The notes: generated by a model from the sequence alone, not told the origin. A DNA stretch of 52,106 bases from Patescibacteria group bacterium (GCA_038063055.1 JBBTVY010000001.1:1-52106), one strand, 5' to 3'; positions 9,827 through 33,879 are shown, counted from the first letter of the stretch. A program made the numbers and translations.

Positions 9827-11335
9827 ATGGGATTTATAAAAACAAGAATTAAAAACGGATTCTCGTTTGGTGCGGGGATTAAGAATCTGCTTTTTGAAAA
9901 CCTGACCGATAAGCAGACTTTCGCCAAAAACGCTTTCTGGCTCGCGGTCAGCAATATCGGAGGTCGGCTAATCCGCGCCGCCATAATAATTTACGCGGCG
10001 CGCGTCCTCGGAGCGGCCGGATGGGGTGTTTTTTCCTATGGCATTACCTTGGTCGCTTTTCTCACGATATTCGTGGACTTTGGCATCGACTCGATTCTCA
10101 CGAAGGAAAGCGCCAAAGCAAAGGGAGATTTTCTCAGGCAAAGCCGGATAATTTCCACCTCTTTATTCATTAAATTATTCCTGCTGGTCATAGGATTTTT
10201 TGTAGTCGTGTTTATAGCTCCCGAATTCGCCATTTTGCCGGGCGTCAAACAGCTTCTTAATCTGATGGCCGCAATCCTCGTGTTCGACACGCTCCGCAAT
10301 TTCGGCTTTTCCCTGATAAGGTCTCGCGAAAAAATGGAGTTCGAGGCCGGGTTATACCTTTTCACCAACCTGGCAATAGTCGCATTCGGATTTGCGGCGC
10401 TTTATATCAAGCCAACGGCCATGTCGTTTACCCTGGCCTATGCCGTCGGAACCGCGTTCGGTCTGATGGCTACCCTTTACGTTCTTCGGAAAGACGCAAG
10501 CTCGGCCCTCTCCAACTTTTCTTGGCCGTTGGTTAAAGAAATTATGTCTTCCGCCTGGCCGTTCGGCGTTTCGGGCGCGCTCAGTCTTCTGATGTTAAAT
10601 ACGGACATCATAATAATCGGATGGTTTCGTTCGGCGGAAGAAGTAGGTTTTTATTCCGCTTCCGTCAGAATCGTGCAACTCCTTTACATTTTCGGCGGCG
10701 TTGTTGCCTCGAGTTCGTTGCCGATATTTTCACGTTTTGTGAAAGAAGAACGGGAACGCCTGAAGGCGGCTCTGAAAAAAATACTGAAGCTGGTGTTCGC
10801 GTTTTCACTGCCGGTGTCTTTCTGCGGCATAGCGGCCGGCGGCGCCATGATAGATTTCATTTTCGGCGAAGAATACATTCCGGCAATATTGTCTTTCCGC
10901 ATCCTTCTTTTAACACTCGCGTTAAGTTTTTCCGCGTTCGTACTGAGCAACGCGGTTTTCGTCTACGACAGGCAAAAAAACCTGATAGTTTACTCCGCCA
11001 TCGGAGGATTTTTGAACGTGGGATTGGACCTTATTCTTATTCCAAAATTCGGTATAAACGGTTCGGCGCTCGCCACAATCTTTTCGCAAATAGCCGCCGA
11101 TTTGTATCTTTGGTTTATAGCCCGGCGGATAATCGGGTTTGATTTGAATCTCGGGATAGGAAAAATATTCTGGACAGCTCTTGGTTCGTCGATTTTTCTT
11201 TACGTACTCATTAAATATGGCATTCACATATTAGTGGCTATTCCGGCAGCCGGAGTTTTTTATCTTCTGGCGCTTTATCTCCTGAAAGAATCTCTTTTCA
11301 AAGAAATAAAATCTATCCTGCAAGCCTCCTCTTAA
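9827..11335 (+). CDS. Wzx-type polysaccharide flippase
   Basis: About 14 TMs. KNAFWL, ARVLG..WGVFSY, TDIIIIGWF, VGFYSA. Confidence 0.92.
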   Translation: MGFIKTRIKNGFSFGAGIKNLLFENLTDKQTFAKNAFWLAVSNIGGRLIRAAIIIYAARVLGAAGWGVFSYGITLVAFLTIFVDFGIDSILTKESAKAKGDFLRQSRIISTSLFIKLFLLVIGFFVVVFIAPEFAILPGVKQLLNLMAAILVFDTLRNFGFSLIRSREKMEFEAGLYLFTNLAIVAFGFAALYIKPTAMSFTLAYAVGTAFGLMATLYVLRKDASSALSNFSWPLVKEIMSSAWPFGVSGALSLLMLNTDIIIIGWFRSAEEVGFYSASVRIVQLLYIFGGVVASSSLPIFSRFVKEERERLKAALKKILKLVFAFSLPVSFCGIAAGGAMIDFIFGEEYIPAILSFRILLLTLALSFSAFVLSNAVFVYDRQKNLIVYSAIGGFLNVGLDLILIPKFGINGSALATIFSQIAADLYLWFIARRIIGFDLNLGIGKIFWTALGSSIFLYVLIKYGIHILVAIPAAGVFYLLALYLLKESLFKEIKSILQASS

Positions 11336-12206
11336 CCCTGGCCAAAGTCGGATGTATTGCTTTTCTGATTGTTTCTGGAATGAACGCGTAAAGATACTGC
11401 AGATAATTCAGAGCAAGCGCCGCTAAATAATTGGGATATTTTCCCTTATAGCGCCTCATTATCGTAAGCGACGCCTTGAGATGGGGTCTCGCTTTTTTTA
11501 TCGAAGTATTGTCGTTCGCCAGAAGATAATATGAAAAATATTCCGGGAAATTGTACAGCTTTCCAACAAGCCCCATTTTGAGCCAGAAATCGCGGTCTCC
11601 GGAATATCTTGTCGATTCGTCATACCAGCCGACCTTCTCGCCGGCGCTCCTGCGGAACATAGTAGTGCTGTTGGCGAGCGGATTTCCGAAAAGCATTTTT
11701 TTTCTGATGGCTTCGTCGGTTTCCGGCTTGAGATACCTGTAAACTTCTTTGCCGTTGCCATCAACAACAATCATCCCTCCGCCGCAGCCGGCGTAGTCGG
11801 GATTTTTGTCCAAAAAATTTACTTGCTTCGAAAGTTTGTCTGCGTCGCACCACGGGTCGTCGTCATCGAGCATGGCTACGTATTCCCCTTTCGCCAGTCG
11901 CAAGCCTCGGTTGTAGTTTTTAGAAATTCCCTGATTAACATCACTTCTCGTGTAAACGATTCGCGGCTTGCCCTGCCCGTCCCGAGCCGCGTCGAGGGAA
12001 GCTTTGTCGAAGGGTTCTTTCTTAAGCCACTTTGCGACAACTTCCGGCGTGTTATCCGTCGAGCCGTCATCGGCGATTATAAGTTCCCAGTCCTCTTGCG
12101 GTGAGCCGGGTCGAACCGTGAATGTCTGCTTTAGCACGCTCTCTATGGCGGAATCAATTAATCCCGCGCGGTTGTATGTGGCCATCAATATGGATACTTT
12201 TGGCAT
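11313..12206 (-). CDS. GT2 glycosyltransferase carrying three in-frame 24-nt insertions
   Basis: SILMATYNR, DDGSTD, LDDDD. Removing the inserts restores LKQTFKDWELII and WLKKEPRIVY. Confidence 0.92.
   Translation of the reverse strand: MPKVSILMATYNRAGLIDSAIESVLKQTFTVRPGSPQEDWELIIADDGSTDNTPEVVAKWLKKEPFDKASLDAARDGQGKPRIVYTRSDVNQGISKNYNRGLRLAKGEYVAMLDDDDPWCDADKLSKQVNFLDKNPDYAGCGGGMIVVDGNGKEVYRYLKPETDEAIRKKMLFGNPLANSTTMFRRSAGEKVGWYDESTRYSGDRDFWLKMGLVGKLYNFPEYFSYYLLANDNTSIKKARPHLKASLTIMRRYKGKYPNYLAALALNYLQYLYAFIPETIRKAIHPTLARVKRRLAG
11967..12014. mobile_element. Two nested 24-nt palindromic elements inserted in frame
   Basis: Outer CTTGCCCTG|AGCTTTGTCGAAGGG is split by inner CCCGTCCCGAGCCGCGTCGAGGGA (11976-11999). 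Together they add 16 aa. Confidence 0.8.
12095..12118. mobile_element. 24-nt palindromic element inserted in frame
   Basis: CTTGCGGTGAGCCGGGTCGAACCG, same consensus as the nested pair. Adds 8 aa. Confidence 0.8.
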
Positions 12207-19855: not shown

Positions 19856-20781
19856 TTGGTTTTGTTTTTTAACACTTTATAATACCGGATCAAAAAAATC
19901 AAAACGCGGTACAGTTTTCTATAAACAGTCGGCGACCCCGAAAGACTCATTAAAAAATAGACGAGTGATCGGATATTTTTGTGTAAAATAAAAGATGTCC
20001 AAAATAATTTTCGAGACGCGGCAGTATCGAAAGACGCCGTAAGGGTTCCTTCCCAAAAATAGAGATAGGACAACGCCGGCGGACCGTAACTTCTGTAAAA
20101 TTCAAAATTTCTTGCTTTAAATCTAGAAAAGTTTTTCAAAAGTTTTTGAGAATCAGTGGATAAATTGCGGGAACCATCCAGATATATATCGGAGTGGAAG
20201 TTATAAACATAAAGCGGCTTATTCAAAAAAATAATATTGCAGACTGCGGCCGCGCGAAAACCAAAATCGCTGTCCTCAGAATTTTCCAACAGTTCGTCGT
20301 AAAATATTTTTCTTTGGGTGAAAACGGATTTTTTCAAAGCAATTCCTCCGCCGAGGCCAATCATCCATTTAGGCCTCGCCTCGCTTTTAAAATACGACTC
20401 TTGGCCGAATTCATCCCTCAAAATAAACCCGGGGATAATAATTTCGACAGCTGGCTGTTCTGAAAAAACTTTCTTCGCTTCCGACAAGTATTCCGGCCGC
20501 AACTCGTCATCGCTGTCCAAAAACACGATTATTTCTCCGCGCGCTTTGTTGACGCCATGATTTCTGGCCGCAGACACTCCCGCATTATCTTGGTGGAAAT
20601 ATCTGATGTTATTTTGCCGGGCTTCAAAATCGCTGACTGCATTTTTCGTGTCGTCCGAAGAACCGTCATCCACGACAACTACTTCAAAATCTTTCTCGGT
20701 TTGGGAAAGAGCGCTGGGCAATGATTTTTCGCGCAGCGCCCGGGCTCGGTTATAAGCGGGTATGATTATGGTTGCAAACAT
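19852..20781 (-). CDS. GT2 glycosyltransferase
   Basis: IIPAYNR, DDGSSD, FLDSDD. Confidence 0.9.
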   Translation of the reverse strand: MFATIIIPAYNRARALREKSLPSALSQTEKDFEVVVVDDGSSDDTKNAVSDFEARQNNIRYFHQDNAGVSAARNHGVNKARGEIIVFLDSDDELRPEYLSEAKKVFSEQPAVEIIIPGFILRDEFGQESYFKSEARPKWMIGLGGGIALKKSVFTQRKIFYDELLENSEDSDFGFRAAAVCNIIFLNKPLYVYNFHSDIYLDGSRNLSTDSQKLLKNFSRFKARNFEFYRSYGPPALSYLYFWEGTLTASFDTAASRKLFWTSFILHKNIRSLVYFLMSLSGSPTVYRKLYRVLIFLIRYYKVLKNKTK

Positions 20782-20787
20782 GGCTTT

Positions 20788-21651
20788 TTATAATTTCATT
20801 TTTGATATTTTCGTTTTTCGCCTGAACTTATCCAGAAAAAATCTCCTGAGCTTATAGGCGGGAAAGAAAATTTTCCGTAAAAACGGCCAAAGGGCATCTA
20901 AGTATTCAAGATAATTCTTGATATAAGCCCGGAAGAAAAACGGGTAGTCGCGGCGATATTTGCGGATTAAAGCCAAACTGAATTTTATGACTTCCGCGCG
21001 CTTCAAGTGGCCGATATTGGTGTCTCCAACAATGGATTCGATGGAGTATTCGGGCAGATTATACATCTTGCCGATTTTTCCAAGACGCATCCACAAATCA
21101 TAATCCTCGGCTTGTTTCAGTTTCTCGTCGTACCCGCCGACTAAAAGAACGGCGGACCTGCGATAAACCACGGCCGGGTGAAGAAACGGGCAACCAAAGA
21201 GCATGGCCTTTCGAATTTCCATATCAGTGCGCGGCTTTAAACTGCTGATTTGCAAGCCCCTACTTTTTAAAATAGCGGTATTGCCGGTGCCGACAATAAC
21301 GTATTCCGGATTACTTTCCAAAAATTCCACTTGTTTTCTCAATTTTGCGGGGTCAATCCAGGCGTCATCATCGTCGATGCGCGCGATATACTTCCCCTTT
21401 GCCTCTTTGAGGCCGCGATTGAGAGTTTTTTGGATTTTCAAATTAACTTCGTTTTTGAAATATTTAATCCGCGGGTCTTTCTTTTGGTATTTTAAAACAA
21501 TCTCTTCGGTTTTATCGGCTGAACAGTCGTTCACAATGATAAATTCAAAATTTCCGTATGTTTGATTCAAAACGCTTTCAATGGACCGCGGCAGCAAATC
21601 CGCGCGGCTGTATGTTGGCATTATTATTGAGACGAACGGTGTTTTATTCAT
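20788..21651 (-). CDS. GT2 glycosyltransferase
   Basis: SIIMPTY, ARIDDDD, AEDYDLW. Start taken at MNKTP. Confidence 0.9.
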   Translation of the reverse strand: MNKTPFVSIIMPTYSRADLLPRSIESVLNQTYGNFEFIIVNDCSADKTEEIVLKYQKKDPRIKYFKNEVNLKIQKTLNRGLKEAKGKYIARIDDDDAWIDPAKLRKQVEFLESNPEYVIVGTGNTAILKSRGLQISSLKPRTDMEIRKAMLFGCPFLHPAVVYRRSAVLLVGGYDEKLKQAEDYDLWMRLGKIGKMYNLPEYSIESIVGDTNIGHLKRAEVIKFSLALIRKYRRDYPFFFRAYIKNYLEYLDALWPFLRKIFFPAYKLRRFFLDKFRRKTKISKMKL

Positions 21652-32919: not shown

Positions 32920-33879
32920 TTATTCCGTATAGAATAGCATCTTGTGTTTCAGTTGCCAAAAGAATTTTACTAAGCCTGAAATCAATTTACCTGGGATAAC
33001 TTTCACGAACAAGATTATGAACGGATAAAATGCAATCCTCCAGCTACCTTTGAGCGCGTCTTTTAAAACAACGATGGCTTCTTTTTTCTCTTCGAGCAAA
33101 AGATGGGCTACGGCAAGTTTGGTTTTCAAAAGTCGAAAAATTTTATCTTCGCCGTATTTTTTCCTTTCGTCCCCGGACATTCTCGAAAAAAGCGCTTCAA
33201 AACTTCTCAGATTCATTTTTTTCATCTTTACCTGATTATGGAAACCAGACAGGCTTTTTTTGCTTATTCGATTGTAATGAAGCGGTTTGTCAACAAATCC
33301 GAATTTAACGCCGCGATAAGCCAGACGCCGCCAAAGGTCCCAGTCTTCCGCGTCACGGAAATCAGGGTTAAATCCGTTTTCGAAAGCAAAAACTTCCCGC
33401 CGTATCATTACCGAGCCTGGATTTATGAACTGGTGCCGCAGAAGGTCGCGGAAAATGTCTCCGTCCGGCATAGGCCGGTCGTATTCGTACATTTTTTCAG
33501 GCGCGTCGTCATAAAAACTCAAAACGCGGCAGTAAGCGACCCCATAATCATGATTGATTTCGAGGAAATTCACTTCCTCTTCTACTTTCTCCAAGGCGTC
33601 GATATCGTCCGTGTCAAGAAACGTTATGTAATCTCCATGCGACAATTCGAATGCTTTGTTTCTGGCTCTTGAAATCCCCCCGTTGGGTTGTTCGAAATAA
33701 ACGACTCTTTTGTCGCTCAAATAAGGCTTTACCGCTTCCGCCGTGCCATCGACGGAGCCGTCGTTAATAATTATTACTTCTATGCTGGGATAGGTTTGGC
33801 CAAGGGCGGAATCCACAGCCACTTTCACGTATTTTTCCGCGTTATATGCCGGGATTATGATTGAAACAAGAGATTTCAT
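32920..33879 (-). CDS. GT2 glycosyltransferase
   Basis: SIIIPAYN, NDGSVD, FLDTDD, AEDWDLW. Confidence 0.9.
   Translation of the reverse strand: MKSLVSIIIPAYNAEKYVKVAVDSALGQTYPSIEVIIINDGSVDGTAEAVKPYLSDKRVVYFEQPNGGISRARNKAFELSHGDYITFLDTDDIDALEKVEEEVNFLEINHDYGVAYCRVLSFYDDAPEKMYEYDRPMPDGDIFRDLLRHQFINPGSVMIRREVFAFENGFNPDFRDAEDWDLWRRLAYRGVKFGFVDKPLHYNRISKKSLSGFHNQVKMKKMNLRSFEALFSRMSGDERKKYGEDKIFRLLKTKLAVAHLLLEEKKEAIVVLKDALKGSWRIAFYPFIILFVKVIPGKLISGLVKFFWQLKHKMLFYTE

Follow-up and report, generated by a model that had tools for sequence, protein, structure and literature searches.

A family-2 glycosyltransferase (GT2) gene in a 52,106-nt stretch of DNA from a Patescibacteria group bacterium (GCA_038063055.1 JBBTVY010000001.1:1-52106; hereafter the window, meaning the whole stretch that was analysed) contains three copies of a 24-nt unit, one of them inside another. 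The unit is a discrete insertion that leaves no target duplication and enters genes in either orientation and in any reading frame. Its arms covary around a fixed loop, it is spread widely across taxa, it builds up nests as newcomers insert into older copies, and copies have been gained in both of the congeneric lineages that we compared. In our judgement there is little doubt that this is a discrete insertional DNA element, translated where it lies in genes. We also hold it to be probable, taking all parts of the account together, that the unit is a non-autonomous 24-nt insertion element, translated as loop insertions and mobilized in trans by an enzyme that we leave open.

Three units in one glycosyltransferase gene

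The gene and its insertions are arranged as follows, in window coordinates.

11313-12206, minus strand: host gene, open reading frame (ORF) for a GT2 of 297 aa (Pfam PF00535, E 3.9e-30)
12095-12118, plus strand: copy A, uninterrupted, 24 nt, antisense to GT2 at residues 30-37; leader 12095-12098, arm 12099-12102, loop GAGC-N3-GTCGA 12103-12114, second arm (arm') 12115-12118
11967-12014, plus strand: 48-nt composite, antisense to GT2 at residues 65-80
11967-11975 and 12000-12014, plus strand: outer copy of the composite, split after its ninth base, between the G and the A of GAGC
11976-11999, plus strand: inner copy, 24 nt, nested in the outer copy

All three units have a 4-nt leader, an exact GAGC-N3-GTCGA core and arms that form four of four Watson-Crick pairs, with a different arm pair in each. 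An earlier note, made from the sequence alone, had described them as three 24-mers of the same orientation, with arms that differ yet always pair and with one unit nested in another; a pattern search, the ORF call and in-silico excision of the inner copy, which recovers the outer one, bear out that description together with its coordinates. A covariance model built from 22 uninterrupted copies, for which E-values are rough, scores copy A at 33.8 bits (E 1.5e-6) and the inner copy at 30.3 bits (E 1.7e-5). The 20 nt that follow the leader of the inner copy are identical at two further places in the genome (the C4:40233 and C5:49081 regions, given as contig and position).

Three more GT2-like paralogues lie on the minus strand of the window, at 20209-20772, 20857-21639 and 33274-33867 (E 1.4e-7, 9.9e-58 and 1.5e-13 to the query, respectively), and neither the core search nor the covariance model found a copy of the element in them.

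Orthologous sites without the insertions

The GT2 protein is 24 residues longer than the 273-aa orthologues of the congeners G001 and G002. All eight orthologues taken from eight other genomes (four of the same genus; 68-84% identity) show gaps of exactly 8 and 16 residues, so that removal of the units restores the canonical GT2 sequence, as the earlier note had proposed; its doubt that homologous GT2s might keep these peptides is answered by the same eight proteins. At the nucleotide level, same-genus orthologue matches measure 819, 819, 855 and 846 nt against 891 nt here, the two longer ones carrying another insert at a third site. A search at E<=1e-40 returned 468 GT2 homologues, with commonest lengths of 273-275 aa among the 120 listed, and among the homologues compared these segments are carried only by the window's own protein. 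In the homologue P0014, 8 extra residues of only the outer type stand exactly at the outer-copy site of GT2; elsewhere among the homologues, inserts unrelated to these occur in both loops and in a third one.

That third GT2 loop collects several kinds of small inserts. A different in-frame insert is found there in G004 (36 nt; L004:1876-1911) and in G003 (30 nt; L005), neither matched by the 24-nt motif, and the homologues P0023 and P0047 have about 30 extra residues at the same loop.

Beyond the GT2 gene, the whole genome of the congener G001 (589,600 bp) could be compared with the genome that holds the window (G000; 687,839 bp in 22 contigs, 90% complete). The two belong to different species and are about 74% identical over 375 kb aligned. 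At the protein level, 17 G000 loci with the element lack it in G001, and DNA-level alignment of the 17 site entries gives clean gaps of 24 nt in eight and of 48 nt in two, the remaining entries being aligned too poorly to measure. The GT2 sites show gaps of 24 nt (copy A) and 48 nt (composite) in G001 with no flank duplicated, and no duplicated flank was found at any clean empty site in this alignment, in keeping with the earlier observation of no clear target duplication. Two copies scored as 23 nt, with a 2-nt spacer (C20:1749 and C3:26637), are 24-nt insertions too, the extra base being a T after the unit. Some copies are common to both genomes, and in at least three reciprocal cases a G001 copy is absent from G000.

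A fixed loop on a variable stem

The unit is made up of a 4-nt leader (in most copies CCTG, CTTG or TTTA), a 4-bp stem of any sequence that pairs and a 12-nt loop of the form GAGC-RNA-GTCGA (R, purine; N, any base), and a T often comes next. Two uninterrupted cores lie in the window, where 100 shuffles gave 0.23 on average and two of them reached the same number; by itself, the window count is weak against chance. Across G000, a search in which arm pairing was not part of the query found 32 exact cores, whereas base composition would by our own arithmetic yield about 3.7. The motif that the earlier note had asked to be looked for elsewhere in the genome is thus common there. The arms flanking these cores are complementary at four of four positions in 15 cases and at three of four in 9, full complementarity having a chance probability of 0.4%.

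Broader searches agree on the order of copy number, some sixty in this very small genome. A relaxed scan of G000 returned 52 matches against 7, 12, 14, 15 and 17 in five Markov controls, and the covariance model gives 52 matches at E<=0.01 and 72 at E<=1 in these 0.69 Mb; three weak matches of the model fall in protein segments conserved in the congener and are taken as false. The variant whose spacer is 2 nt long has a similar frequency (28 copies), and other spacings give 1 to 8 copies each. One copy shared by G000 and G001 has changes on both arms with pairing kept. A count of pairs on the training alignment (100% paired) is circular, these copies having been chosen for their pairing, and is not used as evidence. 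Flank preferences are loose, with C at position -3 and T at position +1 each in 34 of 62 copies, and left flanks are variable.

Insertions in genes are probably translated

Copies lie within ORFs of at least 450 nt in 42 of the 66 listed entries, and 17 loci are confirmed within orthologous proteins. Genic copies are read in all three antisense and two sense frames, and the resulting peptides are unrelated, which identifies the unit as one of DNA and not of protein. The copy is antisense to the gene at 15 of the 17 loci checked against G001; much of this excess is explained by the antisense strand, which has no forced stop in any frame, while on the sense strand the GA after an arm that ends in T creates a TGA in one frame.

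The copies that survive in genes preserve the frame and contain no stop, and the inserted peptides are hydrophilic and loop-like, as would be the case if the 8-aa segments were functional modules under protein selection and the likeness in DNA merely followed. Such an explanation is very improbable and is already contradicted by the data: the copies use at least five combinations of frame and orientation with unrelated peptides, they occur in intergenic DNA and inside other copies too, the GT2 inserts are missing from all eight orthologues and from homologues of the commonest length, and complementarity of the arms is meaningless at the protein level.

Every cleanly aligned genic insertion is a multiple of three, measuring 24 or 48 nt also where the loop is shorter by one base; whether intragenic copies are always of such a length was a check that the earlier note had proposed. 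Upstream of infA, where there is no reading frame to keep, G001 has a single copy and G000 a triple nest, and this non-genic nest added 47 nt. The difference points to frame selection in genes, which argues that the units are translated and not removed from RNA. Spread at the RNA level, whether by retro-insertion that uses an RNA hairpin and a reverse transcriptase or in the form of minute introns spliced from mRNA, is accordingly hard to reconcile with these lengths. Structure-defined recognition and the G-U-type arm pairs of some copies would suit it, as would a weak match to RT-7, a reverse-transcriptase-associated family and the only Rfam match, which covers the composite (E 0.14). However, wobble pairs occur on either strand, and the RT-7 match, at 15.3 bits against a gathering score of 116.8, is so far below threshold that we take it as chance and assign the unit to no Rfam family. 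We regard RNA-level spread as decidedly unlikely, and return to an element that moves as DNA and is translated in place.

An AlphaFold2 model of GT2 (27-sequence alignment; mean predicted local distance difference test (pLDDT) 69, predicted template modelling score (pTM) 0.62) puts residues 30-37 into a coil that connects helix 14-25 with strand 40-46, and residues 65-80 between helix 53-61 and strand 82-87, consistent with the suggestion that intragenic copies map to loops. Block pLDDT is 64 at residues 31-40 and 71-80, against 81-97 in the rest of the N-terminal domain. In this model the inserts lie on the side of the Rossmann-like domain that faces away from the DxD site, a placement that accounts for their being tolerated. 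The orthologue gaps of 8 and 16 residues, together with the genic loci in G000, uphold the claim that the element adds 8-aa loops to enzymes. Other host genes in G000 include the following.

Gene for a 124-aa protein: copy within the Pterin_4a domain
Alpha/beta hydrolase gene (DUF1749): copies at three places
SNase-like nuclease gene: copy in the N-terminal part
infA: copy in the 5' region

Nested copies and hairpin tips

Nesting gives the relative order of events. At C16:14499 the outer copy is present in G001 and the inner one absent, and G000 holds four exact 48-nt nests as well as imperfect and triple ones. Reading 17 G000 nests from printed contexts, we find the newcomer at offsets 13-15, in the middle of the 12-nt loop, in 11, and at offset 10 in one. 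The other five are at offset 9 and all have a single arm combination, that of the GT2 composite; this 48-nt composite may spread as a unit. In the loci from other phyla described below, 15 of 123 copies lie inside the loop of another copy and 9 of 123 at the apex of a flanking perfect palindrome of at least 6 bp, against 34 of 4760 random positions. Several of those palindromes start with GTAG, like repetitive extragenic palindromic sequences (REPs). The loop-centre nests in G000 and the loop and apex copies in other phyla together suggest that hairpin tips are preferred targets.

The same nests raise the question of whether gene conversion, short-homology recombination or slippage between existing copies could suffice, with de novo insertion rare or ancient. 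Identical composites do recur, with the same inner copy in the same outer copy at the same offset (C4:40219 and C5:49063; C16:14489 and C13:457), and copies stand head to tail at C17:12922, C5:4323, C2:36320 and G093:C4. Such neighbours, however, often differ in loop sequence, and several empty sites lie in unrelated unique sequence with no resemblance to the element (GT2, C3:15426, C18:17074 and C20:1749), where a non-homologous step is needed. We therefore consider exchange between copies an unlikely sole explanation, and keep to an element capable of insertion at new sites. Tandem 24-nt arrays of up to six in a row were also seen in other genomes (G093:C4:77248-77392; G025:C53:14699-14746; L115, L154 and L156), and may have arisen by slippage or by insertion beside an earlier copy.

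Distribution across bacteria

The closest GT2 homologues carry the names Liptonbacteria/Paceibacterota, Patescibacteria. Among 40 relatives of the same order, 28 have covariance-model matches at E<=0.01, with 1 to 30 each, and 12 genomes have none; in a sample of the phylum, copies occur in 47 of 150 genomes (E<=0.001). The search across the candidate phyla radiation (CPR) that the earlier note had proposed is thus positive, and the range extends beyond CPR.

Searching across phyla with an exact pattern for one arm subfamily, with 19 specified bases and by our own arithmetic about 4 chance matches expected in 596 Gb, we found this subfamily in 119 contigs or more; judged by the titles of their records, these represent about 16 phylum-level groups. 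Titles among the matches listed include Omnitrophota, Planctomycetota (several orders), Verrucomicrobiota, Lentisphaerae, Bacteroidota, Ignavibacteriota, Fibrobacterota, Zixiibacteriota, Acidobacteriota, Chloroflexota (Anaerolineae), Methylomirabilis, Binatia, Deltaproteobacteria, Gammaproteobacteria, Turneriella, many Patescibacteria and one Methanoregula bin; ten viral contigs also carry the subfamily pattern. Since some of the matches are on contigs as long as 0.7-1.9 Mb, mis-binning of CPR DNA is excluded. The family is not specific to CPR and spans many phyla. Two leader bases that the pattern left free are CC or CT in 112 of 126 copies from the other-phyla loci, and the spacer usually ends in A. 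The same loci contain 48 exact cores other than the seed, 20 of which have four of four arm pairs, with 12 different arm sequences.

These records also bear on the possibility of an assembly or binning artefact, given that G000 is a metagenome-assembled genome and short repeats can misassemble. The family is present in hundreds of independent assemblies, including the large contigs above, and contigs of four runs (two samples of one study, possibly the source) have the filled GT2 allele and are identical to the window across 1401 nt. An artefact is on this evidence extremely improbable.

How the element might move

We suggest that the element moves as DNA and that a trans-acting protein would recognize the fixed loop on its short stem in single-stranded DNA. 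Recognition of the loop on a stem would explain why the arms covary while the loop stays fixed. The unit would then be joined into exposed single strands, above all at hairpin tips, such as the centres of its own loops and the apices of REP-like palindromes. In GT2, one insertion entered the loop between helix 1 and strand 2, and the loop between helix 2 and strand 3 received either two successive insertions or one 48-nt composite. The leading candidate for the activity, if a weakly supported one, would be a transiently supplied Y1 HUH nuclease of the RAYT/IS200 type, and a host hairpin-processing or repair activity would be the alternative. We offer this hairpin-tip mechanism with mobilization in trans tentatively, at somewhat less than an even chance; within it, we give about one third to a Y1 HUH nuclease supplied transiently and the rest to an unrecognized or host activity.

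In the phylum sample, PF01797, the profile of Y1 transposases including REP-associated tyrosine transposases (RAYTs), is found in 29 of the 47 genomes with the element and in 41 of the 103 without it (odds ratio 2.4, p 0.014, uncorrected).

Several results weigh against the proposed mechanism. The association just given is modest and uncorrected for phylogeny or genome size. PF01797 has 0 matches in G000, at 90% completeness, and was not found in the high-copy genomes G001, G004, G028, G029 and G019. Of the 40 relatives, 10 have it, irrespective of how many copies they carry (G014 has it but no element at all), and among the matches listed the Y1 genes of these relatives are not beside copies. 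The 2771 ORFs of 119 other-phyla loci contain no nuclease or transposase family that recurs, and their largest shared cluster, a histidine kinase, is found at six loci; genes around the copy clusters of G000 are ordinary housekeeping ones. The earlier note had expected the motif to flank a gene family such as GIY-YIG or Y1 HUH, an expectation that these loci do not support. When a longer parent was sought by looking for the two halves of the unit separated by as much as 6 kb, only pairs that were separate copies or due to chance came up. Folded alone as DNA, the 24-mer does no better than shuffles (z from -0.33 to +1.26 in 8 folds). Orientation shows no bias relative to local GC skew (27 vs 36), where a strictly lagging-strand mechanism would predict one. 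About 80% of copies are without recognizable hairpin context, and the second type of nest, at offset 9 (five G000 cases), lies away from the apex. Finally, no filled/empty polymorphism was seen in the assembled contigs of the single study mentioned above; rare variants are dropped in such contigs, and filled-only contigs are therefore silent on polymorphism.

Two further proposals of the earlier note survive in part. A non-DDE mechanism is favoured by the lack of target duplication and of terminal inverted repeats, but no mobilizing enzyme was found to go with it. A structure-defined unit is favoured by the covariation of the arms, but, in isolation, the 4-bp hairpin folds with no unusual stability.

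A protein of 210-280 aa, whose match to the Y1_Tnp profile is limited to positions 38-119, occurs in 4-8 copies in many tiny Patescibacteria genomes (for example, G180, G095, G084, G144 and G043). This is an unusual multi-copy family and an HUH-like one.

Comparison with known small repeats

Of the kinds so far described, the small dispersed repeats (SDRs) of cyanobacteria come closest to the element. The SDR4-6 of Nostocaceae, described by Elhai et al. in 2008, reportedly have hairpin potential with compensatory changes, and nested copies; the 24-nt element likewise nests and keeps its pairing by compensatory change. The two are also alike as very small dispersed units (here 24 nt, with 52 matches at E<=0.01) for which both function and mobilizer are unassigned, in their precise presence or absence at orthologous sites (10 of 17 entries clean and at least three reciprocal cases), and in insertion into palindromic targets. 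According to citing papers, the 21-nt SDR5 of Nostocaceae sits between the third and fourth base of the highly iterated palindrome HIP1, and SDRs are reported from a few heterocystous cyanobacteria only (PMC4390886, PMC5861425 and PMC13756078). The 24-nt family differs in that it spans many phyla, that most of its copies in the small genome G000 are genic and translated, and that its loop is fixed and its stem variable. A literature search, with subscription journals mostly outside its reach, found no description of the 24-nt element.

Rickettsia palindromic elements are about 100-150 bp long, confined to Rickettsia and inserted in frame in protein genes, where they give surface peptides. They share with our element the in-frame insertion of a palindromic unit that adds peptide segments, but a unit of 24 nt, in a Patescibacteria-type host and in many phyla, does not belong to them. 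The GC clusters of yeast mitochondria are small palindromic GC-rich units, larger than 24 nt and mostly located in AT-rich spacers. They are presented in one paper as a mobile DNA family in a compact genome (PMC4478555), and differ from the 24-nt element in host and in sequence.

REPs, according to the paper on REP doublets forming hairpins (REPINs), are extragenic and come with a flanked RAYT gene (PMC3116915). The resemblance to our element lies in a short hairpin after a 5' tetranucleotide (which in REPs is conserved), in high copy number, in presumed recognition of a single strand and in the 24-nt copies that sit at the apex of GTAG-headed, REP-like palindromes. In contrast to REPs, which are long imperfect palindromes, the 24-nt element has a 4-bp stem and a 12-nt loop; most of its copies lie within genes, G000 gave no PF01797 match and Y1 genes are not beside the copies listed. 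Membership of the REP/REPIN-RAYT system was rejected on both location and the RAYT gene.

With IS200/IS605 elements the unit shares the lack of target duplication, hairpin-based recognition and a tetranucleotide next to the hairpin, but those elements need two different, subterminal hairpin ends and a fixed tetra- or pentanucleotide target at the left flank, and show a strand bias with replication, whereas the 24-nt unit has one hairpin and loose flanks. Its single hairpin, variable left flanks and orientation relative to GC skew (27:36) led us to reject a miniature of that type. Insertion into palindromic units is known for IS1397, as far as reference titles in PMC3116915 indicate. A miniature inverted-repeat transposable element (MITE) of the DDE type was likewise rejected, there being no target duplication and the leader and arm' not being inverted repeats of each other.

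Other repeats in the genome

G000 contains further short repeats. A perfect 20-nt palindrome (GCCTGCCTGC followed by its complement) is found at four or more loci (C2:17444, C3:50200, C10:13929 and C12:4311), with degenerate versions at C13:23961, C4:45277 and C5:43959 and another that abuts a copy of the 24-nt element at C15:7222; it may represent another family of hairpin micro-elements. A repeat of about 18 nt with the core TCCCGTTAGAGA is present in 12 copies, in inverted pairs 100-160 nt apart (C2:4620/4778, C5:15557/15667, C8:5622/5730, C8:6537/6647 and C8:18308/18424), and the pairs look as if they bounded a small inverted-repeat element or a small repeated gene together with its terminator. 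The 7-nt unit AATTCCA forms short tandem arrays at three unrelated loci (C2:29205, C3:31542 and C5:5419).

Implications

The broadest proposal that these data invite is a pan-bacterial class of mobile DNA, the smallest known: a gene-free 24-nt unit, inserted without target duplication at hairpin tips, its own loop and REP apices among them, and spread by a widespread but unrecognized activity, which would be a transient HUH nuclease or else an enzyme for hairpin processing or repair that all hosts possess. The unit would persist in genomes of 0.6-0.8 Mb in which no Y1 gene was found, and would as a side effect keep adding 8-residue loops to housekeeping proteins across phyla. We put this forward as a speculative possibility, with odds we would place at little better than one in three.

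If the element is what it seems to be, mobile DNA far smaller than MITEs and REPINs can spread across phyla, through a mobilizing activity that nobody has assigned, and enzymes would receive a steady supply of in-frame 8-aa insertions. Part of the extra loops and odd low-complexity peptides in proteins from environmental genomes may then be explained, with a bearing on gene calling, homology search and structure prediction for metagenomes. The preference for hairpin tips would open the in vivo exposure of single-stranded or cruciform DNA to direct tests, and filled and empty sites would provide a clean presence/absence marker for the strain-level phylogeny of uncultured lineages.

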